Virus record (IMG/VR): IMGVR_UViG_3300048890_000030
Coordinates: 1-24,808 of that record
Length of the DNA: 24,808 nt
Source: a virus
Lineage: Duplodnaviria; Caudoviricetes
Strand: one strand, 5' to 3'
Position numbers and translations under genes: made by a program. This document shows, in pieces, positions 11,493 through 24,264 of this stretch (position 1 is its first letter; the number at the start of each line of letters is the position of its first letter). The notes under the pieces are model-generated. The model was not told the DNA's origin and did not search any database. It worked only from the letters and a program-made list of their open reading frames with translations.

Positions 11493-11866
11493 GACTTATA
11501 GCCCGGCAGGAATTGGACGCCGACCGTGTTGATTTTCGCCGGTCGCCATACCGTCCCGCAGGATTGGCAGGCGTGTGTATGGTGCGGCTTCTCGGCGAAT
11601 TCGCCTTCGTCTATATGGCGCTCGCCACACACGGGGCAGTTGAGCAGCATCGGGATCGGCGACGAAGGCACGGGAACCTGCTCGGGATAATCCTGCAAGC
11701 CGAGCCTTTCGTTCAATTCCATTTTTGCGATATTCTCGAAACCGCGTGGAATGAACATGATCCGAAAATTATCGGTGGAGCATGTCAGGACTTTATCCGT
11801 GCCCTCACGCTTGGAAAGCAGGAAAAGGTCATGGCAATTTTGCTCGATATTAGAACGGGCAGTCAT
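11489..11866 (-). CDS. Hypothetical protein with a C-terminal zinc-ribbon
   Basis: Likely ATG at 11866 after AAGGA. Contains CPVCGERHID...PHHTHACQSCG. Confidence 0.7.
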   Translation of the reverse strand: MTARSNIEQNCHDLFLLSKREGTDKVLTCSTDNFRIMFIPRGFENIAKMELNERLGLQDYPEQVPVPSSPIPMLLNCPVCGERHIDEGEFAEKPHHTHACQSCGTVWRPAKINTVGVQFLPGYKS

Positions 11867-12359
11867 CGGTAAATTCCTTTTCCGGTAGAAACGGTTTGAG
11901 CCAATCCGGCGGCGTGAAAAACGGCATGTCGGGAATTTCCCGCTCGACGGGGCGGTATTCCTCAAGACCTACGGCGACATAAATCCAATAGCGCTTTGTC
12001 TCAAGGTCTTGGAACGCCCGGCCGGGGTTCGATTTTATCATTTCGTTATTCTGCGCCACGCTCATGCCGGCGACGTGCTGCACGCAAAGCGTCGAAGGTC
12101 CGCACGGGCAATTATGCCCAACGGGCAGGCCGTCGATATTCAGGCCGTGGATATGATGGGCGGACCATCGGTGCGCAAACCAGCGGCGTTTAGCGTCCCA
12201 AAACGTCCCGTAGGGCGCATGATTGCCATGACCGCTCGTCGTGCCGCCGATCCACATAACGCAGCCCGTGAACGGGTCGAAAGCGCACTTCATCGCAAAG
12301 CGTTCCAGCGGCGTGAGGCGTCGGTTTGCCGACCAAGAATTTCCGGGCCGCGCAGCCAT
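11850..12359 (-). CDS. HNH endonuclease-like protein (divergent) with a C-terminal extension
   Basis: GCVMWIGG...YG...AHRWS...HG...VGHNC...LCVQHV...QNN follows the phage HNH pattern. Confidence 0.75.
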   Translation of the reverse strand: MAARPGNSWSANRRLTPLERFAMKCAFDPFTGCVMWIGGTTSGHGNHAPYGTFWDAKRRWFAHRWSAHHIHGLNIDGLPVGHNCPCGPSTLCVQHVAGMSVAQNNEMIKSNPGRAFQDLETKRYWIYVAVGLEEYRPVEREIPDMPFFTPPDWLKPFLPEKEFTDDCPF

Positions 12360-12539
12360 TTAGCCCATCGCCTCAATTGCTGCCTTCGCGCGCTCTATCC
12401 ACCATGGACGGCGAAATTCTTGCTCGACCGCATAGCAGATACTTTGTTCACTCATAGGCCCGTCACGGTGGGGCGAACGATTTGCCTGCTCATATTGAGT
12501 TTTGCAAAGTGCATAAGCTACTTTTTCTTCCCGCGTCAT
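12360..12539 (-). CDS. 59-aa hypothetical protein (not in the ORF track)
   Basis: MTREEKVAYALCKTQYEQ...WWIERAKAAIEAMG. It is ATGA-coupled to the polymerase stop and fills the gap exactly up to the next ATG. Confidence 0.75.
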   Translation of the reverse strand: MTREEKVAYALCKTQYEQANRSPHRDGPMSEQSICYAVEQEFRRPWWIERAKAAIEAMG

Positions 12540-14533
12540 TTCCGATACCTCAACATGCTTTCGACATTGGCCTTGACACGGAATTTCCGTTCAATCGCCC
12601 ACGGCTCCACGTCCTCCATAATCTGTGTCACCATCTGGATAAGGTCCGGCCGGTCGGTTTCCTCGAAAACCAATTCGTCGTGGACCTTGAAAATCCCGAA
12701 TAGCCCTTCCTTTTCCGCACGCTTCATCGCGCCGACCATAAGCTGCCGTGCGCTGCCCTGGATGCAGTCGGCGGTAATCATGCCGTGCCATGCGAGGTGA
12801 CGGCGGAATTTCTTGCCCTGATAGGACATGAAGGTCCACGAGGGATGCTCTTGCCCCGTGTTCGGATTGAAGGTCTTATCCTTGCGCGGCCGGTGATACC
12901 AAAGCTTTTTCCCGTCCGGCAGGCGCATCGTGAGGAAGTCGCTTTCCTTGCGAAATTCGATGCCGGCATAGGAATAGGTTTTCGCGTGATCGCACCAGAC
13001 GGCATCAACGCTCGCCTGCCAAAGACCATACCAGAATTTCGGCACCATCGGCGCCACCTCTTTCCGATAGGTGTTGATAGCGAGCATTGCCAGATCGATC
13101 GATTCCTTGGGGGCGAACCGCGCGCGGAACCCGACCGGCCCGAGGCCATAGCCCGAGCCTAGGAAGGTGTTCTTTCCGATTTGCCCTTCCTTCTGCTGCA
13201 CCTTGCGATCAATCGGCCGCTTGTAGATCATGGAGGCGGTTTCGGAATACACGTCGAGCCCCGCGTGCATCTGCTCCACCCGGTCGTGCTGGCCGGCCAT
13301 GGAGAGCAGGTTGCGGGCTTCGACGGCGGCATAGTCCCCCGAGACGATCACCTTGCCCTTCTCGGGCACGATGCACGACCGCAGGGACGAAATGATAGCC
13401 GAGAAAATGTCCGGCCCCCAAAGCTCTTGGATATAGTCGATATCGCGGGTGAGGATCGCGTCGGCGAGGATATCGGCCGTAAGCCCCTGCCGGTCGCTGA
13501 TTTCCCCTCGGGGATAATTCTGCACCTGAATAAGCCGACCAACATCGCGGCCCGTCCGGGCGCCGTGGAATTGCGTCGCATAGCGCACGCGCATATCGGT
13601 TGCCGAGGCGCATTGAAGCATCCGTTCGAGCTTGGCGACACTGGACGACGCGAGCGAGCGCCGCAGGGTGATGACCTCGTGGACGTGATAGGGCAGCGGC
13701 TCTTGGAAATCCTCAATTCCGAATTCGTCGCCCGGATCAAGGATCGCGTCGAGCGTGGCCTTTTTCATGTCCCCGAGCGGCACGCCGTTGTCATTGACCC
13801 AATTCAGCACCTTTTCGCGCTGCGTCGGATTGAGGCCCGTCAATTCCCGAAATCGCTCGGTCATCGGCACGCGCACTTTGTCGAGCACTTCAATACAGGC
13901 GTTCACGAATTCCGTGTCGATTTTAATCCCGCGCTGATTATAGCGCTGATCGACGATCCAAGTATGCCGCTCGGCCGGGCCGAGGCCCTGCGTCGTGACA
14001 TAGACGCCGTATTGCGCATCGCAGTCGGACGCGCAGTAGTCATAGAGAATTTTCAGGTTGTGCTCATTGTGCTGCGACCAGCCGCCATAGCGATCCGGCT
14101 TGCACATGATGAGCATGTGGCGGTGCCCGTCCATGTCTTTCTTGACGGGCAATTCCAGCGCCGTGACAAGCGCGTCGAGCCCGAGGGGCAGGCCCTTCAT
14201 GCCGGCGACGGCCATCGTGTCGTGCCAACGCTCGGGCGGCAGCGCAGGATAGCCCATCGGCTCCATATGAAAAAGCCACATAGCTTGCTCGAAGCCAGCG
14301 TTATGCGCGACGAAAATCACCGTCTCGTCAAGGCAAAGCTCCATCAACCGGGGATCGAGCGCGTGAAGCTGTTTTTCCGACAGGACGAAAGTCGGTGCCG
14401 GCCGCTTGTCTGTCACGACTTTAACGCCGAGGCAGAGCGCGAACGTGGACATATCCGCCGCGTATTTCCACGCACCTATTTTTTGGAGATCAGCCCGAGA
14501 GGCAGTCTCGAAATCGACAACTGCATACCTCAT
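12536..14533 (-). CDS. polA: Phage DNA polymerase, family A, with 3'-5' exonuclease domain
   Basis: ExoI VVDFET, ExoII AHNAGFE, ExoIII YCASD, RTGR...QVQNYP, motif A GDYAAVEAR, motif B GKNTFLGSGYG and motif C VHDELV. ATGA-coupled start at 14533. Confidence 0.95.
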   Translation of the reverse strand: MRYAVVDFETASRADLQKIGAWKYAADMSTFALCLGVKVVTDKRPAPTFVLSEKQLHALDPRLMELCLDETVIFVAHNAGFEQAMWLFHMEPMGYPALPPERWHDTMAVAGMKGLPLGLDALVTALELPVKKDMDGHRHMLIMCKPDRYGGWSQHNEHNLKILYDYCASDCDAQYGVYVTTQGLGPAERHTWIVDQRYNQRGIKIDTEFVNACIEVLDKVRVPMTERFRELTGLNPTQREKVLNWVNDNGVPLGDMKKATLDAILDPGDEFGIEDFQEPLPYHVHEVITLRRSLASSSVAKLERMLQCASATDMRVRYATQFHGARTGRDVGRLIQVQNYPRGEISDRQGLTADILADAILTRDIDYIQELWGPDIFSAIISSLRSCIVPEKGKVIVSGDYAAVEARNLLSMAGQHDRVEQMHAGLDVYSETASMIYKRPIDRKVQQKEGQIGKNTFLGSGYGLGPVGFRARFAPKESIDLAMLAINTYRKEVAPMVPKFWYGLWQASVDAVWCDHAKTYSYAGIEFRKESDFLTMRLPDGKKLWYHRPRKDKTFNPNTGQEHPSWTFMSYQGKKFRRHLAWHGMITADCIQGSARQLMVGAMKRAEKEGLFGIFKVHDELVFEETDRPDLIQMVTQIMEDVEPWAIERKFRVKANVESMLRYRK

Positions 14534-14904
14534 GCCCGGCGAGCCTTTCGTGTTTCCCAAGCCTTACGGCGGGCTTCGGGGTTTTTCCCGGAATGTGTGC
14601 CACGTCGCACGGTCGCTTGGATATTCTTTGCGCGCGTCCCATATTCGAGATTGGACAATTTCGGGTTTAGTCGATTGTCATCCTCATGGCACACGTCAAG
14701 GCCGGCCGGGCGCGGTCCTAGGAAAGCTTCCGCCACGACAACGTGCAGGAGTTTCGTCTTACCGAACGCGATATTGAATTTCAGGTAGCCGTGCGAACCG
14801 ATCCCCGGCCGCAAGAATTTCTGCGAGTGCCAACTATAAACGCGGCCTTCGCTCGAAACCATATGCATCGGGAAACCCGGCACGACTGCCCAACGCTCGC
14901 TCAT
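14530..14904 (-). CDS. Free-standing NUMOD4-HNH homing endonuclease
   Basis: ERWAVVPGF...VSSEGRVYS (NUMOD4), then LHVVVAEAFLG...VCHEDDNRLNPKLSNLEYGTRAKN (HNH). Confidence 0.9.
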   Translation of the reverse strand: MSERWAVVPGFPMHMVSSEGRVYSWHSQKFLRPGIGSHGYLKFNIAFGKTKLLHVVVAEAFLGPRPAGLDVCHEDDNRLNPKLSNLEYGTRAKNIQATVRRGTHSGKNPEARRKAWETRKARRA

Positions 14905-15359
14905 GACCGGGGAATTTCCGGCAGGAGAATGTCACGGGTCTTGATCTCGTGCAAAGCTTCCGTCCGTGTCCCAAATTTGCGCGTCTCTGCCAGGGCAAGA
15001 TAGCGCACGGCGCGGTCATGCTGCCGGGCACAGTGCTGGATTTCTTTTTTCTTACGGGCGATGAAGCTGGCACGGGCAAGCTTGCGCGTCGGGTAGGCGT
15101 GACGCCGGCCGGAACCTTCGAGCACGAATTTTTTGAACCGGGCTTCGGGGTCCCAAAGCGGCGCGATCCAGAAACCGGCAGGTGTGCGCTTGACGACGCG
15201 ATATTCAATGACCGAGATCGCGAGCACGTCATCGGACATGCGAGCATTCATTTCCCGATAGAAATAATGGTTCTCGTGCTCTGCGCGTTCCCCGCAATTC
15301 TTGCAGGTATTGGGAGCCCCGAACACATAAGCGTGCTGCGGCATGTCATCCTCGGTCAT
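14901..15359 (-). CDS. Hypothetical phage protein (N-terminal CxxC)
   Basis: ATGA-coupled on both sides, GGAG RBS. Confidence 0.75.
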   Translation of the reverse strand: MTEDDMPQHAYVFGAPNTCKNCGERAEHENHYFYREMNARMSDDVLAISVIEYRVVKRTPAGFWIAPLWDPEARFKKFVLEGSGRRHAYPTRKLARASFIARKKKEIQHCARQHDRAVRYLALAETRKFGTRTEALHEIKTRDILLPEIPRS

Positions 15360-15667
15360 AGGTCATACTCCAATGGAGGGCGGACAGGCTTCGGGCGCGT
15401 CTCGGGATAATGCTCGTGTATCCAGTCAAGCACCTCATAGGCCGTTTCGATATAATTCGTCGTCGGGTTCTTCGCGATCTCTTGACCGGGTGAGAAATTC
15501 ACCCAAATCTTCCCGCGCAGATTATAGGGCAGCATCGCCCAATGCTTTTTGCAGCCCCACATAGCCGGCGGCACTTTCGCGTCGCAGGTAGGCCAATGGC
15601 AGTGATGACCGCCGGCCCCGTGCTTCATTTGCGAACGGACATAATCCGCTTTCTCGGCGATGTTCAT
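15356..15667 (-). CDS. Cys/His-rich putative zinc-binding protein ending in EYDL
   Basis: HHCHWPTC...WGCKKHWAMLP motif. Likely ATG at 15667. Confidence 0.8.
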   Translation of the reverse strand: MNIAEKADYVRSQMKHGAGGHHCHWPTCDAKVPPAMWGCKKHWAMLPYNLRGKIWVNFSPGQEIAKNPTTNYIETAYEVLDWIHEHYPETRPKPVRPPLEYDL

Positions 15668-15669
15668 GG

Positions 15670-15918
15670 TCAAAACCCCTGCCGGTCGATTTCACGAGGC
15701 CCGAGCGGCTTTGCGCTGGCATCCCCGATATCCACGGTCTTGATCGCGCCGAGCATCGCCACCGCTTCGATGAAAGTTTGAAGTGGGATCAGTGCGGCGC
15801 ATTTCTGCTGGTTGCGTTGGTCGGCGACTTCGAGCAGCACCGCATTGCCGGCACGGCTCAAGACGAACGACGAGAGGTAGTGCGGGCTGTCCGCGTCTGT
15901 AGGGAACCGGATTTCCAT
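15670..15918 (-). CDS. Hypothetical protein (82 aa)
   Basis: GGGAG RBS 6 nt before the ATG at 15918, immediately after the upstream stop. Confidence 0.65.
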   Translation of the reverse strand: MEIRFPTDADSPHYLSSFVLSRAGNAVLLEVADQRNQQKCAALIPLQTFIEAVAMLGAIKTVDIGDASAKPLGPREIDRQGF

Positions 15919-15919
15919 G

Positions 15920-16105
15920 TCAGGCTCCCGCGTGAAAGTCGGAGTGCCGCGCAGCATCATAAGGTTTTTTCCGTTGGCGGCGCGACACGGCGCTCTCACC
16001 TTCCCGGAAATACATGCCACAACGCCGGCATTTGGCGGACGGGGATTTCCCCGAGAATTCTGTGTGAGGGTGCCATAGCAGGCACCATATCGCTTTCCAG
16101 CGCAT
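15920..16105 (-). CDS. 61-aa putative zinc-finger microprotein
   Basis: GGGAG RBS 7 nt upstream. Pattern CLLWH...CRRCG. Confidence 0.6.
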   Translation of the reverse strand: MRWKAIWCLLWHPHTEFSGKSPSAKCRRCGMYFREGESAVSRRQRKKPYDAARHSDFHAGA

Positions 16106-16112
16106 GACAATT

Positions 16113-16190
16113 CTCCCATGAAGGCGAGAGGCCGGGTTAGGCGTGGGATGACCGCCCGGCCTCTCTATCCGCTCCGATCCCTAGGAGATC
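16113..16190 (-). promoter_or_regulatory. Structured intergenic leader, copy 1 (CCTAGGG - 11-bp hairpin - GCCTTCATGGGAG)
   Basis: Perfect inverted repeat at 16126-16136 / 16155-16165. The 13-mer at 16113-16125 is identical to 24269-24281. Confidence 0.55.
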
Positions 16191-16941
16191 AGAACGGAAT
16201 TTCTTCGTCCAGCTTGCTACCGCCCATCGTCTGATTGTCGGGAGCGTTCGCCGTGGGATCATAGTCCGAATAGTGCTGGTAATTACCGAACACCTCATTG
16301 TTGCCGGGTCCGCCAGCGCCGGCAATGCGCTCGCCCTTGCGGACGTAGAGGCAGTTTTGCAGATATGCCGTCACGCCGTCCTTCGCGTCCAGCGTCTTGC
16401 GACGAAACGCCTTGAGGGCGACCGCCGGGACGACATAGGCGCCGGGATAGAACAGGTCTTTACCGGCCTGCGCCCGTGCGTGCTCTTCCTGCGGGATATC
16501 GACAACCTTCGAGCCGCCCGCAACGGGTTCGAGCCGTGCAAGCTCGATATCGTATTGGGACGACGCGGTGAGGATGCCGGCATAGGGCTTGTAAAGCTCT
16601 GCCCGCTTTTGGGCCTTCTCACGGAGCTTGAATTTGTCGTCCTCGGACAAGCCGGGGGCCGAGCAATCGAATTCCGCCTTTTCCAGCGCACGCTTGCCGG
16701 CGGTCATCCCGCTTTGGCAGGCGAGGTAATAATCGCCGGGGTTCGTGAAGGTGCCAAGCTCTGCCTTGATCGCACGCACCATGATTTCGACAACGGCGTC
16801 AAAATCTTCCTTTTCGATGCCGAAGGTTCCCGAGAATTTCGGAACGGCACCCTGGACGCTCCGGGGAGCACTCTTCGCCGTGATCGACGAGAAGAGCAGA
16901 CGGGCGGGCTTGATAAGCGTGTAGCGATATGTCTCGGCCAT
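16189..16941 (-). CDS. ssb: Phage single-stranded DNA-binding protein (DUF2815/gp2.5-like)
   Basis: ARLLFSSI...PKFS, FYPGAYV, GVTAYLQN...RKGERIAG and the acidic tail DEEIPF. It lies next to a DUF2800 nuclease and Pol A. AAGGA RBS before the ATG at 16941. Confidence 0.85.
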   Translation of the reverse strand: MAETYRYTLIKPARLLFSSITAKSAPRSVQGAVPKFSGTFGIEKEDFDAVVEIMVRAIKAELGTFTNPGDYYLACQSGMTAGKRALEKAEFDCSAPGLSEDDKFKLREKAQKRAELYKPYAGILTASSQYDIELARLEPVAGGSKVVDIPQEEHARAQAGKDLFYPGAYVVPAVALKAFRRKTLDAKDGVTAYLQNCLYVRKGERIAGAGGPGNNEVFGNYQHYSDYDPTANAPDNQTMGGSKLDEEIPF

Positions 16942-16954
16942 TTTCAATTCCTTT

Positions 16955-16981
16955 GCTTCATCGTGGTTTCATCGTGGCTGC
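16955..16981 (-). repeat. 27-nt leader repeat, copy A (tandem CCACGATGAA, 11-nt period)
   Basis: GCAGCCACGATGAAACCACGATGAAGC on the - strand, 25/27 identical to 18534-18560, immediately before the ssb RBS. Confidence 0.85.
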
Positions 16982-17023
16982 GGCGCGTCAAACTTCCCCG
17001 CCGCCGGGAATTCTTCTATAGCG

Positions 17024-18259
17024 TTAAAAGCCGGCTTCCTCAAGCGGAACCGTGCCCGCGTGGCCTTGAAAAACCGTCTCATTATTGCGCGGTTTCGCTT
17101 CGGGACGGGGATCGGAAAGCGGCGCAATCGTGAGGCCAGCGCTATCCGGCTTGAAACCATATTCCAGCGCCAATTCCTTGCCCCGGCTGGACAGCTTTTC
17201 GATTTGCGCAGGGCTGCGGATTTCCTTCGGCGCATAGGCTTTGTCACCGAAAGCTTCGAGCAGCGCCGCTTGCGCGCCGGGTTTCCAGACGCGAGCAACC
17301 TTTTTCTCGACGAGCTTCGCGCTCGGGATCGAACCCGGCTTTGCGATCATCCGGGCGCGCACGGTGTTTTCCAGCGCGGTCATGAAGCGACGGGCATATT
17401 CGCGTTGGGAATAAAGCTCGTCCAATTCTGCGTTCGTAAGCATGGTGATAAAATCCTCGCCAGCGTCCGCATAGGTGCGGAACGCGCGTTGCATGACAAT
17501 GCAGTCCAGAAGGACCGGGCAAAACTGGCAGTGATCGCCGGGCACATGATCGGCCTCGGTCGGTTCGCAATCCACGTCCGTTCCCGTGAGAAAATTCATC
17601 CGGGGCAGAAGCTCGTTGTCCAGCCAGTCGAGCACGAAGCCGACCGTAGTTTCCCAAATGTCCGGCTCTTCAAAGATGCCGTAGAAATTGGGCTGCACGA
17701 TCCCGAGCGACACGCGGAGATCACGGGGAGCACCGCCGTTAGGCCAGATGGATTTGACCATGAGCGCGCCATAATAGAGCAACTGCTTGTTGCCCTGTGC
17801 GTGGACGCCGACGCCTTCGCCGTTTTTATAGTCCCGCAGGAAAAGCCCGTGCCGCAGCGACCAAAGCCCGAAATCGACCGTGCCCTTGAACAGCGGATGA
17901 ATTTCGGGGAGGTGGATCGTGCTTTCCAGCATCAACGAGCTTTCGGGACCGCCGTAATTTTCCAGCAGCTTTTGGCACTCGTTGAAATAGATTTGCACGG
18001 CGTCGAGCGCAATCCCGTCCGGCCAGCCGGCCAGATACCCGTTGAAATCTTCGCCGAGATATTCGTAGGGCTCGCGGTCATCTTCGATGGCCTTCGCACC
18101 TAGCTCATGCGCGCCGGTTCCCCTGTCTGCATATTCGCTCGGTGTGTCCTCGAATTGACCAGTCATAATTTGCTGGCGCTGGATGAGGAACGAAGCGGTG
18201 CAGTTGAAAAACCGATGCGCGCCAGAGCCCCCGAGCGGGGAATGCTCTAGCTCGATCAT
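17024..18259 (-). CDS. DUF2800-family Cas4-like PD-(D/E)XK exonuclease
   Basis: HSPLGGSGAHRFFNC, GTGAHE, GTVDF...DYKNG...QLLYY and PGDHCQFCP...C. ATGA-coupled start at 18259. Confidence 0.9.
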   Translation of the reverse strand: MIELEHSPLGGSGAHRFFNCTASFLIQRQQIMTGQFEDTPSEYADRGTGAHELGAKAIEDDREPYEYLGEDFNGYLAGWPDGIALDAVQIYFNECQKLLENYGGPESSLMLESTIHLPEIHPLFKGTVDFGLWSLRHGLFLRDYKNGEGVGVHAQGNKQLLYYGALMVKSIWPNGGAPRDLRVSLGIVQPNFYGIFEEPDIWETTVGFVLDWLDNELLPRMNFLTGTDVDCEPTEADHVPGDHCQFCPVLLDCIVMQRAFRTYADAGEDFITMLTNAELDELYSQREYARRFMTALENTVRARMIAKPGSIPSAKLVEKKVARVWKPGAQAALLEAFGDKAYAPKEIRSPAQIEKLSSRGKELALEYGFKPDSAGLTIAPLSDPRPEAKPRNNETVFQGHAGTVPLEEAGF

Positions 18260-18513
18260 AGGTCGAATTCCTGCGCGGGCTTGGCCGGCTGGACCGGCTT
18301 CGGGAGATCGCACCAGAATTCGGGATTGATGATCCACACGCCGTAACCGCATGTGTCCACCACGTCGAATTTCCCAATGCGCTCCTGCGTCACTTTGGCG
18401 GCGCTGGTGAGAGGTTCGGCGGCGTAAAGCTCGCTCTCGATTTCCCCGCCGCAAACCAGAAAAGGTTCGCTGCTATGCGGGGCCGTGGAAATGTGTTTCC
18501 AGTCCTTTGCCAT
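18256..18513 (-). CDS. DUF551-like small protein ending in QEFDL
   Basis: WKHISTAP...FWCDLPKP pattern, AGGAG RBS. Confidence 0.75.
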   Translation of the reverse strand: MAKDWKHISTAPHSSEPFLVCGGEIESELYAAEPLTSAAKVTQERIGKFDVVDTCGYGVWIINPEFWCDLPKPVQPAKPAQEFDL

Positions 18514-18533
18514 GATTGGCTCCTATGTCGTCG

Positions 18534-18560
18534 GCTTCATCGTGGTTTCTTCGTGGTTGC
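18534..18560 (-). repeat. 27-nt leader repeat, copy B
   Basis: GCAACCACGAAGAAACCACGATGAAGC on the - strand, 25/27 identical to 16955-16981, shortly upstream of an AGGAG RBS. Confidence 0.85.
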
Positions 18561-18640
18561 CCGCAGATTACACGCTGCGGGCGCCGTGGCGACCCTTCGG
18601 GGTTTATCGGAGCTTCGCTCTTTCTAGCCCCGCAGGCAAC
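18556..18640 (-). other. Highly structured intergenic segment (candidate cis-regulatory RNA)
   Basis: Several nested inverted repeats, detailed in the findings. No known family recognised. Confidence 0.45.
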
Positions 18641-18644
18641 TCAA

Positions 18645-19382
18645 TTAACCAGCGAATTCGATGCCGGCTTTAGCCTCGATAGCGGCGGCGAACGCAGCGC
18701 GCTTGTCCTCGGGGATATTCCGCGAATGCGGCGTCTCGCCCTCGGTGACATATTCGGCGATGATCGCCTTGACGGGCGCCGGATCGCCGAGCTTCACCGC
18801 AGCCTGATTGCAGAGCGCGCCGAGATCGGCATCGGTCCACTTGCGCGACGGCACGCTGGCCTTCGCGCTGGCGTCCTCGGCGTCGGTCTTGGCGGCAGCG
18901 GCACGGAAGGCGGCGAATTCGTCGTCATCGTCCGCAGTCGAAGCCGGGGCGGGGTCCGCTTGGGTCGCACCCTGGCCGGACGCAGAAGTCGGAGACGTTG
19001 CCGTGTCGGTGCCAGTGCCCTTTGGGAAACCGGGGAGATCGGCCGGGCGGCTCACGCCGACCTTCATACGCCAATAGCCGTCCTTCGTGGTGCCGCGCGT
19101 CGAAGCGTGAAGATCGGCCGACCACGGATGACCGCCTGCATCGACCTCGTTCGGATCACCAGCCGGCGCCGTCTCGGTGGAGGCGACTGCGGGAGCAGCT
19201 TCCGTTGCCGATGCGGCCGGTGCGTCCGAAGTGGGCGACGGCTGCACCGAGACGGGCTTTCCCGAACCGGAAACCGCGACCGCTGCGAGCGACGCGCCGC
19301 CGAGCAGGGCATAGACCGCCGTAAGCTGTTCGCTGGACAGCACGGTAATCGCGACTGTCAGGGGATGCTCAAATTTACTCAT
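18645..19382 (-). CDS. Ala/Pro/Thr-rich phage replication-module protein
   Basis: A DAGGHPWSADLHAS...DGYWRMKVGV motif and a C-terminal helical domain are separated by low-complexity linkers. This type of gene typically precedes DUF2800 genes. Confidence 0.75.
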   Translation of the reverse strand: MSKFEHPLTVAITVLSSEQLTAVYALLGGASLAAVAVSGSGKPVSVQPSPTSDAPAASATEAAPAVASTETAPAGDPNEVDAGGHPWSADLHASTRGTTKDGYWRMKVGVSRPADLPGFPKGTGTDTATSPTSASGQGATQADPAPASTADDDDEFAAFRAAAAKTDAEDASAKASVPSRKWTDADLGALCNQAAVKLGDPAPVKAIIAEYVTEGETPHSRNIPEDKRAAFAAAIEAKAGIEFAG

Positions 19383-19386
19383 TTCC

Positions 19387-21225
19387 TTAACCTTCCTTCT
19401 GATCGAGAACGCGGTGGATCACGTTCATTTTTTCCAGTGCCTTCACCAGAATTTTTTCGGATATGGAGCCGGGAGCGACAAATAATTCTGCGCTAACCAA
19501 ATTCTCCTGCCCGATCCTGTCTAGCCGTGAAACGGCCTGTTCATTCTGCGCCGGCACCCAATCAGGTTCGGCGAGGTAGCAACGAGAGCAAACTTTTTGG
19601 AGGCCGTCCAAGCCAGTGCCCGCTGCTTGAATATTCCCGAGGAACACACGCACATTAGGCTTTCCCACAAAATCGTCAACGGCTTTTTGCCGTGCGTTGG
19701 GGCTTTTACGCCCGTCAACGCGAACGGTTCCATAGCGGGACAATTCTTCCTCGAAAATGTCGAGCACTTCTAGGTGCCACGCGAAGATGGTTAGCTTTTC
19801 CTCGGACCCTTCAAGGAATTCCCGTGCGTAGTCGGCAATGTGCGGTGCGAGCGCAATTCCCATCTGCCTACGGACGGCGGCAATGTGCCCTAAAACCTCG
19901 AAATCTTTAGTCGTCTGGATATCCTCAATGGAAATCCCAAGCATTCCCTCGGCGTCGAGCGCGTCTTTGATCGCACCGCCGGCTTCGGAGATTTTCACCA
20001 GCCCGTAGCGCGGTGGCTTCATGAATTTCAGCACGTCTTTTTTCTCGTGCCGGGCCATGATGTTCACGCGCAAGCGGTTCTGCAATTCCAATTCCAGCGA
20101 CGTGCTTTCGAGCTTGAACCGCTTCCCCTCAATCGTGACCATATCGGCCTGTTTGTTGTAGCGATCCTTGAAATCTTCCTCGCTCATGAAATCGATCGAT
20201 TCATGGTCGAAGTGCCGGAACAGCACGTAGCATTCGCTCGGCCGGTTGAGTAGCAGGGTTCCCGTGAGCGCGATCCGGTCGCGGCAGTATCCGGCAATCG
20301 CCGTCATCTTCACGTCGCCGTGCTGATATTCGCCCCGGCCATTCCCGAGGATCGCTCGCGTCGTGAGAGCGTCGATATTCTTCATTTTGTGGGCTTCGTC
20401 GCAAATCAGCACGTCCCAATCATATTTGGAAATCGCCCGGATGATCGCGGGATTTCTCGCCGCGTCATAGGAAAGCACCTGATAATTTGCGGTCGGATGA
20501 ATTCCGTCCTTCACCTTGAGCATGACCGACGCTTTGACGTTGGGGATCGTGCTCCACGCGCGGATGACCTCGCCCCATTGCAGCCGCACGGACGCCGGGA
20601 CGATCACGAGCACGCGATGCGCTTCGACCTCGTTGCAATAGGCGATGCTCGTCGGTGTCTTGCCTAGCCCCGGCTGGTCGCCGTTGATCCCGCCGCGCCG
20701 CTTCAAGAGATAGTCGAGCGTGGCTTTCTGGTAATCCCAAAGCTCTTTGCCCGGCGGCAGCTTCCGCGTGCCCATGCCGTCGAGCGCCCGGCTCAAGTCG
20801 ATCATACGCTTGAACGGTGCGAGGCCGGGGCAATCAGGATTAGCGAGATCAGCCAGGGCGTAGGGGTTCGTCGCGAACAGCACGGCTTTCTCGCGCGAGC
20901 TTGCCGCCGTGGAGAATGTGACGCCGCGATAGGCCATCATGTCGGCGATGAGTTTTTTCACGTCCGGCCCGGTCGGGACCTCGCAAATATAATTCGCGCC
21001 GTTCTGCCAAACCTTCATTCCGGGCTTCCTTGCTTTCTTCTCTTGCTCGAATTTCGGTTGTTCTCTGACTGCGGCCATAAAGCCGTCCATCCAAGACTTG
21101 CGGTGCTCGAACCTCGTGTAAGGGCATTTCGAGCCCGGCACTTGTGCGTCCGCCAAACCCTTCGCGTAGGCTTTTTGCAGGCCCTTAACATAGCCAGCCT
21201 CTTGAGGGGTTTCGCGAAATCTCAC
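19387..21225 (-). CDS. SNF2-family (SF2) helicase with an N-terminal RMF/CrpP-like extension
   Basis: LWDYQ, DQPGLGKT (motif I), DEAH (II), LTGT (III), AAGTGLDG (V), QAVSRLDRIGQ (VI). GTG at 21225 is GTGA-coupled. An alternative ATG at 21018 has an AAGGAAG RBS. Confidence 0.9.
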   Translation of the reverse strand: MRFRETPQEAGYVKGLQKAYAKGLADAQVPGSKCPYTRFEHRKSWMDGFMAAVREQPKFEQEKKARKPGMKVWQNGANYICEVPTGPDVKKLIADMMAYRGVTFSTAASSREKAVLFATNPYALADLANPDCPGLAPFKRMIDLSRALDGMGTRKLPPGKELWDYQKATLDYLLKRRGGINGDQPGLGKTPTSIAYCNEVEAHRVLVIVPASVRLQWGEVIRAWSTIPNVKASVMLKVKDGIHPTANYQVLSYDAARNPAIIRAISKYDWDVLICDEAHKMKNIDALTTRAILGNGRGEYQHGDVKMTAIAGYCRDRIALTGTLLLNRPSECYVLFRHFDHESIDFMSEEDFKDRYNKQADMVTIEGKRFKLESTSLELELQNRLRVNIMARHEKKDVLKFMKPPRYGLVKISEAGGAIKDALDAEGMLGISIEDIQTTKDFEVLGHIAAVRRQMGIALAPHIADYAREFLEGSEEKLTIFAWHLEVLDIFEEELSRYGTVRVDGRKSPNARQKAVDDFVGKPNVRVFLGNIQAAGTGLDGLQKVCSRCYLAEPDWVPAQNEQAVSRLDRIGQENLVSAELFVAPGSISEKILVKALEKMNVIHRVLDQKEG

Positions 21226-21464
21226 AAATCGAATTCCTGCGGGGCCGGAAGCACGGTCGGCTTCGTCTCGCCACGCTTGAACGCGGGCAGCGGCCCGACC
21301 CATCCAAAGACGGTGCCCGGCGGATTTCCCTGCCAGCCCGTTCCCATGTGCCAGATGCGGATTTGCTCAACGCACCAGAATTCGGAAATCGGGTCCTCGA
21401 CATAGGCGACATAGACGCCGCCGATAGGAGGCTTGCCCTTTCGGATTTTATAGTCGTCCATCAT
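21222..21464 (-). CDS. Small hypothetical (DUF551-like) protein ending in QEFDL
   Basis: PPIGGVYVAY...W...VFGWVGPLP. Coupled to its neighbours on both sides. Confidence 0.75.
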   Translation of the reverse strand: MMDDYKIRKGKPPIGGVYVAYVEDPISEFWCVEQIRIWHMGTGWQGNPPGTVFGWVGPLPAFKRGETKPTVLPAPQEFDL

Positions 21465-21796
21465 AGGTCGAATTCCAGTGCGGGCTTTTCAGCCGGTGGA
21501 CGGGGAAGCTGCTCGCCGAGGCGGACGCAGGCGCGGGCTTGATCGGCCAGCCGGGTCATAAGCGCCTCGAAAACCTCGGCGTCATAGGACAGGAGCATTT
21601 CCTTGATCGTGTCCAGAGCGAACCCGCCGAATTGCGCAGCAGCGATAATCCGGGCCTTGTCCATCTGATCGTCGGTGTAGCGGCGATTTCCGCCGTTCGA
21701 CCGTTCGACCGGGCCGAGCAAGTCTAGGTCCTCCCAATACCGGACGCCGCGTGCGGTAGTGCAGCCGGCCCGGCACATATCCTCAACGGTGTGCAT
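21461..21796 (-). CDS. MerR-family HTH transcriptional regulator ending in EFDL
   Basis: TARGVRYWEDLDLLGPVERSNGGNRRYT...GFALDTIKEML is the MerR N-domain pattern. TAATG-coupled ATG at 21796. Confidence 0.9.
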   Translation of the reverse strand: MHTVEDMCRAGCTTARGVRYWEDLDLLGPVERSNGGNRRYTDDQMDKARIIAAAQFGGFALDTIKEMLLSYDAEVFEALMTRLADQARACVRLGEQLPRPPAEKPALEFDL

Positions 21797-21957
21797 TAGA
21801 ATTGTCCTTCCCAAATCACTTGCGGCGGGTAGAGCCCTTTCCGCAATTTGAATTCATGCGTTTTCTGTTCCTTCGTCGAGCGGCAGTGCCCGCACTTCCG
21901 GTCATAGCGGGACTGATAGCCCCGGCCGCACTGGCAAACTTTAGAGCGCAATCGCAT
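21796..21957 (-). CDS. 53-aa CxC...CxxC zinc-finger microprotein (not in the ORF track)
   Basis: MRLRSKVCQCGRGYQSRYDRKCGHCRSTKEQKTHEFKLRKGLYPPQVIWEGQF. GAGGA RBS; its stop overlaps the MerR ATG. Confidence 0.75.
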   Translation of the reverse strand: MRLRSKVCQCGRGYQSRYDRKCGHCRSTKEQKTHEFKLRKGLYPPQVIWEGQF

Positions 21958-22360
21958 GGCGAAAATCCTCTTCCGTTTTTATGACCCTCGGCCAATGATG
22001 GATACGCTCGACAACGAAGAATTGCCGATAGCCGAAGTCCAGCCGGGGGAGATCGGCATAGTCCAATTCAAATTCCAGCCGCCGGGCGGATTTCGGAACG
22101 GCAGGCCAGCGGGTCGAATGACCGACCGCGATAGCCAGGGCGGGCCACATAGGCGCCAATTCCTCGGCGGTGTAAAAAGGTCGCACCTCCCAATGGGGAA
22201 GCCATGCGCGGACGGCCTGCGCGTCGGGATCATTGACGGGGCGGGCAAAAGCCCAATCCTCCATTTCCTGCTTCCACTGCGCAATCACGCCCGGCCGGTT
22301 GCCCGTGGCCTTCATCGCTTTGACGATGGCGTGCGTCTCGCCTTTCCAGAAATCGTTCAT
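21941..22360 (-). CDS. Hypothetical protein (139 aa)
   Basis: ATGA-coupled to the primase-helicase gene, GGAG RBS. Confidence 0.75.
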   Translation of the reverse strand: MNDFWKGETHAIVKAMKATGNRPGVIAQWKQEMEDWAFARPVNDPDAQAVRAWLPHWEVRPFYTAEELAPMWPALAIAVGHSTRWPAVPKSARRLEFELDYADLPRLDFGYRQFFVVERIHHWPRVIKTEEDFRHAIAL

Positions 22361-24264
22361 AGGTCATACTCCCGCGTCGGAATTGCCCATTGCCCCTTGG
22401 TCGGCTTGAGCGAAACTAGCTCGTCGTTCTTCGCCAGTTGCTTGCGGACCAAATCTTTTTCGATCCCGTGCGTCCCGGCGATTTCCTGCACAAGCGTTGC
22501 GTCGCTGCATTCCCCGCCTTGGCTCGCGATCACTTTCATGACTTCCAACATTGACGCCCAATCGTAACGGGATTTCTGCGGCTTTCCGCTCGTCGCCTCG
22601 GGAAGTGCTCCCGTCCGCGCCAGCACGATAGACGAACCAAATTCCTTTGGCTCAAAATAGCTGATTTCGTCGCTCACGTCCGCGTCTTTTTGCTTCTTCA
22701 CGCGAAGCTCTGTCCCGCCTTGACGCAATTTCGTGGAAATCACCGTGTCCATATTCGCGTAAAAAGCCGACGAGCCGCGAGCGCCCTTCGATTGATCCTT
22801 GCCGGTATGGTGGATCGCGAGCACGAAGCATTCATAATAGCGGGCAAGCTGCTCCATGAAATTTGTGACTATGCTCGCGTCCTTCGTGTTGTTTTCGTCC
22901 ATGCCGGTGAGCAGGCGCGTTAGCGTGTCGATCACGATCAAGGCGGGCTTGGCCTTCAATTCCCCGAGATCGGCCTTGATATGCTCCCATGCGTCGGAAT
23001 CTGTGTAGAACGGCACGCGGTCTTTGATGATAAAGCGATGATCGTTCCGAAATTCGATCCCCTGCCAGTCCATCCACGCGGGCCAGCGTTTCCGCGCCGT
23101 CGCAACGGGACCCTCGCCAGCGAGAAAAAGCACGTCGTTTTTCACGGGCGGCGCGTTCCATTGGCCGGGCACGCCGAACGCCAAGCACAAGGCCATGTCC
23201 AGCGACAAAAAGGATTTGAACGAGCCGCTTTCGCCGTAGATCATTCCCGTGCCGTTCGCGGGCAGCACGCCGGGAATTAGCCACTCGGGATCGCGCACGT
23301 TGTCGGCGTAATCATGCAGCCACTTCAATTTGTCGCGGCTGCGGTCCTCTGGTGCCTCGGGCTCGAATTGCTGCCCGACGAACGCGGCAAAAGCATCTTC
23401 GTTCGCCTGAAATCCTTTAACGCCGCCCTCGGTATCTTCTCCGTAGGCAGCGGCATTGCGGATAATGCCCTCAAGCTCCCAATCGTCCCATGGCGGCGAA
23501 CATGCCGGGTTCCAGTGCTCCCACATGAGATCGAAGCACACGCCGGGGGAAATCGCCTTGTCGAGAATTGAGGCGCAAACCTGAAAGGCTAGATTGTTGC
23601 CGCCTTTACCCTGGATAGAGACGCGGCCGGTTTCCACGTAGTTTTTCAGGAGATCGAGCGCCCACGCGACATTGCGGGGCTTGTCCGCGTCCGGGTTCTT
23701 CGCGAGCCCTAGCGTGTCGGTTTTCTTCCGCTCGGGAATAATCGCCTGCATGAAGTCGGGTAGCGGCTGGATCGTGCCGCCGGGCAGCGCCGTGTAATTG
23801 CCATCAACGCGGCCGGGTCCGGCCTTGGTCTTGCTGCCCGGCAGGACGACATAGCCGCCCGAGACTATGCGGCCCTCGCGCTGGATACCGCCGCGCGTGT
23901 CGATACCATCGGCGATGCGGCTGGCAGTGCTCGGGCCTTCGCCCTTGAAATAGACGTGCAAGCCGCCCTTGGGCGTGCGAACCTGAAAGGCAGCGTCAAC
24001 GGCTTGTCTGATAACCGGATCGCGCTCTAGCAGCTTCGCCCACCAGTCAAGGCCGTTGGGGTCGATATCGAAAACGAAAAGGCCGGATGGACCGCAGGCG
24101 ACGCCCCAATTGATTTCGGTGCCTAGGGCGCGTTGCCATTCCGCAATCTGTGCGGGGTCGCTGCTTGCGTCTTTCCAGCCGTTCTTTGTCGCCGGGTCTT
24201 TTGTGCCAGCGATGATCGGAAAAACCTTGCAGCCCCGGAGAATGTCGGGTAATCCTTGCAACAC
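22357..24264 (-). CDS. Bifunctional primase/polymerase (Prim-Pol) fused to a RepA/AAA_25-type helicase, ending in EYDL
   Basis: VFPI...KDP...GWKDASSD...NWGVACGPSGLFVFDID and TPKGGLHVYF (Prim-Pol). GESGSFKS (Walker A), LIVIDTL (Walker B), IHHTGK and RGSSA (RepA-type helicase). Confidence 0.92.
   Translation of the reverse strand: MLQGLPDILRGCKVFPIIAGTKDPATKNGWKDASSDPAQIAEWQRALGTEINWGVACGPSGLFVFDIDPNGLDWWAKLLERDPVIRQAVDAAFQVRTPKGGLHVYFKGEGPSTASRIADGIDTRGGIQREGRIVSGGYVVLPGSKTKAGPGRVDGNYTALPGGTIQPLPDFMQAIIPERKKTDTLGLAKNPDADKPRNVAWALDLLKNYVETGRVSIQGKGGNNLAFQVCASILDKAISPGVCFDLMWEHWNPACSPPWDDWELEGIIRNAAAYGEDTEGGVKGFQANEDAFAAFVGQQFEPEAPEDRSRDKLKWLHDYADNVRDPEWLIPGVLPANGTGMIYGESGSFKSFLSLDMALCLAFGVPGQWNAPPVKNDVLFLAGEGPVATARKRWPAWMDWQGIEFRNDHRFIIKDRVPFYTDSDAWEHIKADLGELKAKPALIVIDTLTRLLTGMDENNTKDASIVTNFMEQLARYYECFVLAIHHTGKDQSKGARGSSAFYANMDTVISTKLRQGGTELRVKKQKDADVSDEISYFEPKEFGSSIVLARTGALPEATSGKPQKSRYDWASMLEVMKVIASQGGECSDATLVQEIAGTHGIEKDLVRKQLAKNDELVSLKPTKGQWAIPTREYDL

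Follow-up and report, generated by a model that had tools for sequence, protein, structure and literature searches.

We analyzed a 24,808-nucleotide stretch of DNA (the window; IMG/VR virus record IMGVR_UViG_3300048890_000030, positions 1 to 24,808) from a virus of the Caudoviricetes (Duplodnaviria), in which five genes end in a common C-terminal tail. A first-pass annotation, made from the sequence alone, had described this tail as E[F/Y]DL. The shared tail proved to be real; the unit conserved across the clade was, however, [YFLH]-Asp-Leu-COOH. This terminal tripeptide is a tag under protein-level selection, and in genes whose stop overlaps the next start it is dual-coded with the ribosome-binding site (RBS) of that next gene. 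With slightly less than even confidence, we propose that the tail is a Gln-less hexamer-type (Q-phi-x-L-x-L) docking tag, read most likely by the host beta sliding clamp through its peptide cleft.

Five genes in the window share a C-terminal tail

Translation of the window in six frames gave five occurrences of E[FY]DL, all of them directly before TGA and on the minus strand, with the stops of the tail genes ending at 22357, 21461, 21222, 18256 and 15356. The tail was encoded by GAG TAT GAC CTA twice, GAA TTC GAC CTA twice and GAA TTC GAT TTG once; coordinates and codon variation were as first described. Of the called genes, 5/22 on the minus strand and 0/11 on the plus strand were tagged, the latter in agreement with the first-pass annotation. 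Each of the five stops overlapped the start of the next gene, four as ATGA and one as GTGA. The tagged genes (amino acids abbreviated aa) were as follows.

22357..24264, minus strand: primase-helicase with Prim-Pol and AAA_25 domains (Pfam), tail EYDL-stop at 22357-22371
21461..21796, minus strand: MerR-family helix-turn-helix (HTH) regulator (Pfam, NCBIfam), tail EFDL-stop at 21461-21475
21222..21464, minus strand: 80-aa protein belonging to a small paralogous family (alignment), tail EFDL-stop at 21222-21236
18256..18513, minus strand: 85-aa accessory protein overlapping a Cas4-like start (family comparison), tail EFDL-stop at 18256-18270
15356..15667, minus strand: 103-aa Cys/His protein (phrog_18063) whose homologues elsewhere have clamp-motif-like ends in the same slot, tail EYDL-stop at 15356-15370

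The primase-helicase and MerR identities in the first-pass annotation were borne out by Pfam, the former through its Prim-Pol and AAA_25 domains. Its DUF551-like label had no Pfam match and stands unconfirmed; for the 80-aa protein, the Atlas model reached template modeling (TM) scores of 0.56-0.61 against DUF551 clusters, below the naming bar of the tool.

The tail is a clade-wide feature confined to particular families

A core sample of 10 near-complete relatives was examined, in which 597 genes were called with a home-made gene caller. The caller miscalled at least one frame (the methyltransferase of G009), and the totals of 93 tagged and 597 called genes are therefore approximate. The DNA pattern of the tail matched 5-8 times in each of the 10 relatives and not once in the reversed control. 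C-termini ending in Asp-Leu (DL) were found in 93 of 597 genes against 2.8 expected, while EL ended only 3. There were 7-12 tagged genes per genome, corresponding to ~15%, or about 1 in 6, of the proteins. The residue before DL was Tyr in 44, Phe in 30, Leu in 15, His in 3 and Gly in 1.

Tagging was nearly all-or-none by family. Of 41 families with at least four members, 32 had no tagged member and 6 were fully tagged; the remaining ones were tagged in 9/10 and 1/7 members or represented a merged pair (10/10 and 0/10). The primase-helicase was tagged in 10/10 relatives, and the 80-aa protein family ended in DL in 16/16 members from these relatives. The 85-aa protein was tagged in 3/3 members, counting the window copy, and had homologues at 1 locus only. 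A scan with the MerR regulator returned 36 loci at 50-86% identity, and E, D and L were invariant in an alignment of nine MerR tails. Further tagged proteins comprised a 189-aa HTH/winged-helix-like protein, a terminase-small-like protein with its neighbors, and a post-capsid protein. Thus, the tag is not restricted to the replication arm, as had first been supposed. The terminase-small-like label was assigned because of a weak DUF5681 lead, on 22% of one of the otherwise unnamed clusters returned by an Atlas search, together with a position upstream of the terminase large gene. Virion proteins, the polymerase (0/10), the single-stranded DNA-binding protein (SSB), the exonuclease and the helicase were untagged.

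The tail stops at the edge of the clade. Primases carried it at 21/21 further clade loci and in 0/12 distant (~30%) relatives. Among 150 terminase-small-like representatives, 12 were tagged, 8 of them within the best 21.

The peptide is selected in addition to the ribosome-binding site

Since every window copy overlaps an RBS and start, the first-pass annotation had cautioned that RNA-level constraint contributes, and had suggested looking for copies with no gene start at the stop. Such copies were found: 28 of the 93 tagged genes had no ATG or GTG start overlap, and these terminated in TAA (16), TGA (7) and TAG (5). All six Leu codons were used in the 28 free tails, which had no common DNA beyond the codons. 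Among genes whose stop cannot overlap any start, 22/281 were tagged. Glu at position -4 was present in 5/28 free tails compared with 53/65 start-coupled tails. Therefore, the Glu is largely the Shine-Dalgarno (SD) sequence of the next gene, the caution was justified to that extent, and the unit is an aromatic residue or Leu followed by Asp-Leu-COOH.

Coupling to a downstream start did not account for the tail. DL ended 44/177 coupled genes against 0.9 expected. Among the 64 coupled genes that have GGAR in this register, 28 ended otherwise; the geometry of SD plus NTGA therefore does not force the tail.

A census of contexts over all clade loci yielded 241 distinct E[FY]DL-stop contexts. Against these there were no cases of E[FY]DF-stop, E[FY]EL-stop or E[SC]DL-stop, 3 of E[FY][NHG]L-stop, 2 with another last residue and 7 of D[FY]DL-stop. 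Because the tail is kept without start overlap and the tested one-base changes to DF, EL and [SC]DL are absent, we conclude that it is selected as a peptide, in support of the first-pass proposal.

Individual families displayed the same behavior. For the terminase-small-like protein, the tail was present in 119/120 and the terminal Leu in 120/120 of the matches listed (of 678), with 14 different residues at -4, and the tail was present at 46/46 complete loci. One member of the 189-aa family had ~55 extra residues and retained its FDL end. In the post-capsid family, DL ended 32 of the 62 complete, distinct proteins, among them 34-58-aa forms in which a whole domain is absent. The linker before the tail was rich in Pro and Lys; its Pro content of 16.5%, against 4.6% in untagged ends, upheld the Pro-rich linker described earlier, and Asp plus Glu made up 11.5% against 12.8%. 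In the predicted structure of the 189-aa protein, the last five residues had a predicted local distance difference test (pLDDT) value <50, which would suit a flexible end.

The junction DNA offers a route for gaining the tag

When the 241 contexts were scored by frame, 218 scored best in the tag frame, 11 were unclear, 1 lay at an edge and 11 scored best in another frame. Ten of these last 11 lay behind a C5 DNA methyltransferase, and one was a frameshifted primase end. A junction kept in other frames, which the first-pass annotation had counted against a peptide, was thus observed in one family. The methyltransferase is an accessory gene found at the following loci.

L166:17747-18787, L034, L103, L113, L192, L196, L178, L195, L028, L179, L033, L035: accessory C5 methyltransferase

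In most copies with both ends readable, the gene lay between two copies of the junction. In 7 contigs its stop lay within the junction, out of the tag frame; in 5, short duplications brought the gene into that frame. In L196 and L178 the methyltransferase was interrupted by an insertion. A tree of 14 rows was computed, leaving out the partial or duplicate loci L173, L186, L187, L188, L190, L231, L237 and L238. The five in-frame methyltransferases did not form one clade (approximately unbiased test, p-AU 0.04); well-supported branches forced at least 2 changes of the in-frame label, the best tree had 5, and the label clustered no more than in shuffles. Given the flanking junctions and the in-frame duplications, the junction is likely an insertion point and a route of tag gain. 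On these sequences, repeated gain of the tag by methyltransferases is suggested; loss, or the plain need for a stop, could also explain the in-frame pattern. Duplication of ~20 bases of the RBS junction would be the way in which a newly inserted gene gains the tag, and the junction DNA is likely the route by which singleton genes pick up the tail.

The arrangement around the methyltransferase, and the overlap of all five window copies with an RBS and start, are what might be expected if the repeat were a DNA or RNA element, such as a start-associated sequence or recombination junction, with the peptide as a by-product. However, the degeneracy of the repeat followed the genetic code, with free copies sharing only their codons, and in junction-plus-start contexts the next base was A, making the tag-frame stop, in 217/217 cases, compared with 314/586 genes. 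In addition, family comparison showed that the junction goes with the upstream gene and not with the downstream one, and the five in-frame methyltransferases did not group as one clade. As a sole cause, a nucleic acid element is largely refuted. Collectively, these data describe a clean case of an RBS-dual-coded protein tag with a visible gain route for new genes, whatever the reader.

Evidence for and against the host beta clamp as the reader

The first-pass annotation had imagined one hub for the tagged proteins, which might be the phage polymerase, the host clamp or RNA polymerase; of these, we infer that the host clamp is favored. Under this proposal, [Y/F/L/H]-Asp-Leu-COOH on 7-12 unrelated proteins per genome would dock them in one pocket, the aromatic residue and last Leu filling subsite I of the clamp while the Asp and free carboxylate meet its basic rim. 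Host clamps on DNA would thereby become anchoring points for the primase-helicase, a pair of HTH/winged-helix proteins, the terminase-small-like protein and the small accessory proteins; alternatively or in addition, the tag might deprive host Pol III and Hda of clamps. We regard as doubtful the fuller scenario, in which the clade swapped Gln motifs for a Gln-less three-residue address in the RBS junction, has the host clamp as the base or the target of about one sixth of its proteome, and spreads the address by ~20-base duplication.

The proposal draws on the Cys/His family. Of 120 homologues listed (of 237), 8 ended in DL and 112 did not. The last 14 residues were searched for the patterns DLF, Q-x-x-L-[FL] and Q-x-x-L-x-L, taken from the published consensus. 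Among the matches listed, a clamp-motif-like string was present in 14 of the 112 non-DL homologues, against a shuffle mean of 0.56 and a maximum of 4 in 2000 shuffles; control sets gave 8/504 and 1/138. In listed non-DL homologues with a tail of at least 10 residues, 26/55 had a clamp-like string or a two-hydrophobic end. The clamp-like ends aligned in register with the tag, and a bridge form, Q-G-A-F-D-L, was observed.

The tag was also compared with the clamp hexamer position by position. Position 2 was L, M or V in 24/50 tails against 24% expected with the SD base fixed (31/93 overall); the p value of 3e-4 is inflated because the genomes are related. At position 6, where the hexamer has Leu or Phe, the tag has its terminal Leu. 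The Gln of clamp motifs has been reported as helpful and not required, and LQLELDF was the top phage-display clamp binder (PMC11139829). The same source describes a basic subsite I with acids or a free carboxyl flanking it, and names the delta subunit as the one natural clamp ligand known to lack Gln, with a warning that searches are biased to Gln motifs. If the clamp is the reader, this Gln-less tail, present across the clade, would provide ready material for probing the gap left by that bias.

In a co-fold, the clamp from the Erythrobacter bin with the last 30 residues of the MerR regulator scored 0.43, compared with 0.01 for the best of three controls; contact agreement between runs was at least 83%, partner pLDDT was 48 or higher, and the output gave no interface. 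Solved pairs reached the mark in 116/157 cases and mismatched pairs in 2/215. The pass is weak, because the passes at <=0.60 comprised 18/157 solved pairs and both passing mismatches, and it may reflect memory of solved clamp-peptide complexes.

Several observations weigh against the clamp. The slot argument comes from one family, and the patterns were fixed after the tails had been seen. Distant terminase-small-like homologues had a clamp-like string in 1/138, and post-capsid homologues showed no clamp-like slot, one of them ending in EELF. Gln occupied hexamer position 1 (-6) in only 4/93 tails, and position 4 was Tyr or Phe in 74/93, where known motifs have Leu or Met; on these two points the tail falls outside the canonical clamp motif. 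Known hexamers vary (G, P, E) at the position of the near-invariant Asp, and QLDLF does not need its Asp (10.64898/2026.05.27.728225). None of the 10 relatives has the tag on its polymerase. Finally, the clamp used in the co-fold is a stand-in, the host having been assigned from metagenome-assembled genome (MAG) bins and homologue names.

The clamp motif of DinB-type proteins usually lies just after the little-finger domain. At DinB-family loci of the candidate host order (L283-L312), x-P-D-L-[ILVA] was present at this place in 11/30, and a few loci ended in Q-L-x-L-[FL]; these tails are mixed and not decisive.

Relatives, host and setting

The window record is a fragment, the genomes of relatives being 40-46 kb. 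These encode a P22-like portal and coat together with a module of family A polymerase, gp2.5-like SSB, DUF2800 exonuclease and SNF2 helicase. The best matches in GenBank phages were <35% identical (terminase and polymerase), with no close isolated relative, and the only near-full-length GenBank phage match of the primase was at 28%. Three sequencing runs contained at least half of the words of the record, all of them soil metagenomes and two of them possible sources, and no RNA run was among the runs listed as containing it. We infer that the host belongs to the Sphingomonadales: two of four MAG bins with clade contigs are of this order and hold further phage pieces, and named homologues of the 103-aa protein occur in Rhizorhabdus, Sphingobium and a Sphingomonas phage. 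The terminase-small-like gene was found in 1 of 151 genomes of the candidate host order, the MAG bin itself.

No clamp or clamp loader was matched among the clade proteins scanned (27, 21, 30, 30 and 33 per scan), which covered part of the genes. The models of the tagged 189-aa and untagged 139-aa proteins were good and had no Foldseek match at E<=0.001; only winged-helix-like matches with Z up to 5.5 were obtained, and predicted folds identified no reader.

Untagged neighbors and a second tail class

Several untagged genes adjoin or accompany the tagged ones in the window.

21941..22360, minus strand: conserved 139-aa protein, untagged, tagged in 0/10 relatives; RBS and start inside the primase tail
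19387..21225, minus strand: SNF2 helicase (Pfam), untagged; GTG start overlaps the stop of the 80-aa protein gene
17024..18259, minus strand: DUF2800 exonuclease (library matches), untagged, C-terminus EEAGF
16189..16941, minus strand: gp2.5-like SSB (library matches), untagged, C-terminus DEEIPF
12536..14533, minus strand: family A DNA polymerase (Pfam), untagged; window copy without a canonical clamp motif

The exonuclease and SSB ends, together with DDCPF on an HNH-like protein (11850-12293, minus strand), define a second tail class, which we take to resemble SSB C-terminal tips. Similar acidic ends in Phe or Trp recurred across the clade. HNH-type genes lie on both sides of the polymerase (14530-14904 and 11850-12293, minus strand). 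The SNF2 helicase begins with an RMF-like stretch (21066-21180, minus strand; PF04957, E 1e-4, below cut-off), which brings it to 612 aa in the window compared with 543 aa in G001.

Alternative readers

Another pocket of the host might read the tail. As a C-terminal degron, or by binding a protease adaptor, a chaperone or some other pocket of the host, the tag would set protein lifetime or jam a host machine. The strictly terminal position, the flexible linker and the range of bearers, which are functionally mixed non-virion proteins, early as well as late, with no tagged virion family, would all fit. We nonetheless consider this explanation unlikely. An Asp near the C-terminus usually stabilizes proteins against ClpXP and Tsp, and no matching degron was found in the open-access literature searched. 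Nor was the pattern enriched in either of the two candidate host bins (36 versus 42 in the control, and 47 versus 59), in counts that also admitted TGG and Phe codons. After these were dropped, 23 stretches were read, of which one was a real-looking host-contig gene ending in [FY]DL. A 178-aa open reading frame on an Erythrobacter-bin host contig (L263:181-717, minus strand) ends in PLQYDL and has no Pfam match; it may be due to chance.

The reader could instead be a phage protein, namely the family A polymerase, the SNF2 helicase, a 245-aa multi-module protein or the 139-aa protein, in the manner of T7. The tail of T7 gp4 binds the T7 polymerase. Likewise, the gp2.5 tail binds a basic patch of the polymerase (PMC12339929). 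The candidate readers are core and untagged, and the range of the tag follows the clade, as the primases and terminase-small-like representatives indicate. However, the T7-like role is already taken by the acidic, Phe-ended tail of the SSB, the tag has neither an acidic run nor a Phe end and is carried by late-region proteins, and clamp-like ends replace it in outside homologues. We judge a phage reader to be distinctly improbable.

The 245-aa early protein (18645-19382, minus strand) shares a small W-R-M-K-motif domain with the tagged post-capsid protein (L149:17316-17684, plus strand); in its disordered linker, the early protein also has DEFAAF as an invariant stretch. A candidate adaptor may be seen here.

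A DNA or RNA element with the peptide as its by-product is, on the evidence of the free copies and the tag-frame stop given above, very improbable.

Comparison with known systems

No description of a [YFLH]DL tail was found in the open-access literature searched. If the host clamp is the reader, the closest parallels are the hexamer motifs of Escherichia coli Pol IV (QLVLGL), Pol III alpha (QVELEF) and Hda (QLSLPL) (10.64898/2026.05.27.728225). Like the tail, these are short terminal motifs on flexible linkers with a hydrophobic-x-Leu end, borne by unrelated DNA-acting proteins; position 3 is often Glu, an aliphatic residue at position 2 may be a further likeness, and in one family clamp-like ends occupy the slot of the tag. 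Unlike them, the tail has no Gln, an aromatic residue at position 4 and a near-invariant Asp at position 5, is strictly terminal, reaches ~15% of the phage proteome and is dual-coded with an RBS, and its docking is a prediction.

In phage Mu, C drives late transcription through the host clamp (PMC12867686). Mu is without its own clamp, as the clade may be, and Mor and C reach the host clamp through short motifs in transcription factors, Mor having the DLF core only. The Mu motifs read Q-x-D-L-F, whereas the clade tail has no final Phe, its regulator is of the MerR type and many other proteins are tagged. The tail would offer a test of whether a phage with no clamp of its own uses that of its host to organize replication, transcription and packaging.

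The T4 polymerase gp43 bears an LDFL-type motif. The LDFL tails of T4 gp33 and gp55 on the gp45 clamp resemble the tag in that one C-terminal motif serves several unrelated proteins and couples replication to transcription (PMC9690074). T4, in contrast, encodes its clamp and loader, neither of which was matched among the clade proteins scanned; the clade polymerase lacks the tag, and the motif differs. With T7, the clade shares a family A polymerase, a gp2.5-like SSB and a primase-helicase with a C-terminal tail; the T7-like acidic, Phe-ended tail sits on the clade SSB and exonuclease, whereas the tag is without an acidic run and ends in Leu. The start-associated sequences of cluster K mycobacteriophages (PMC3203893) are, like the tag, repeats at the RBS of non-structural genes; they are a fixed 13-bp DNA word, whereas the clade repeat differs in codon use between copies and is also kept at a distance from starts. 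By analogy, the tail would work like clamp-binding motifs and the docking tails of T4 and T7 while falling outside the canonical clamp motif.

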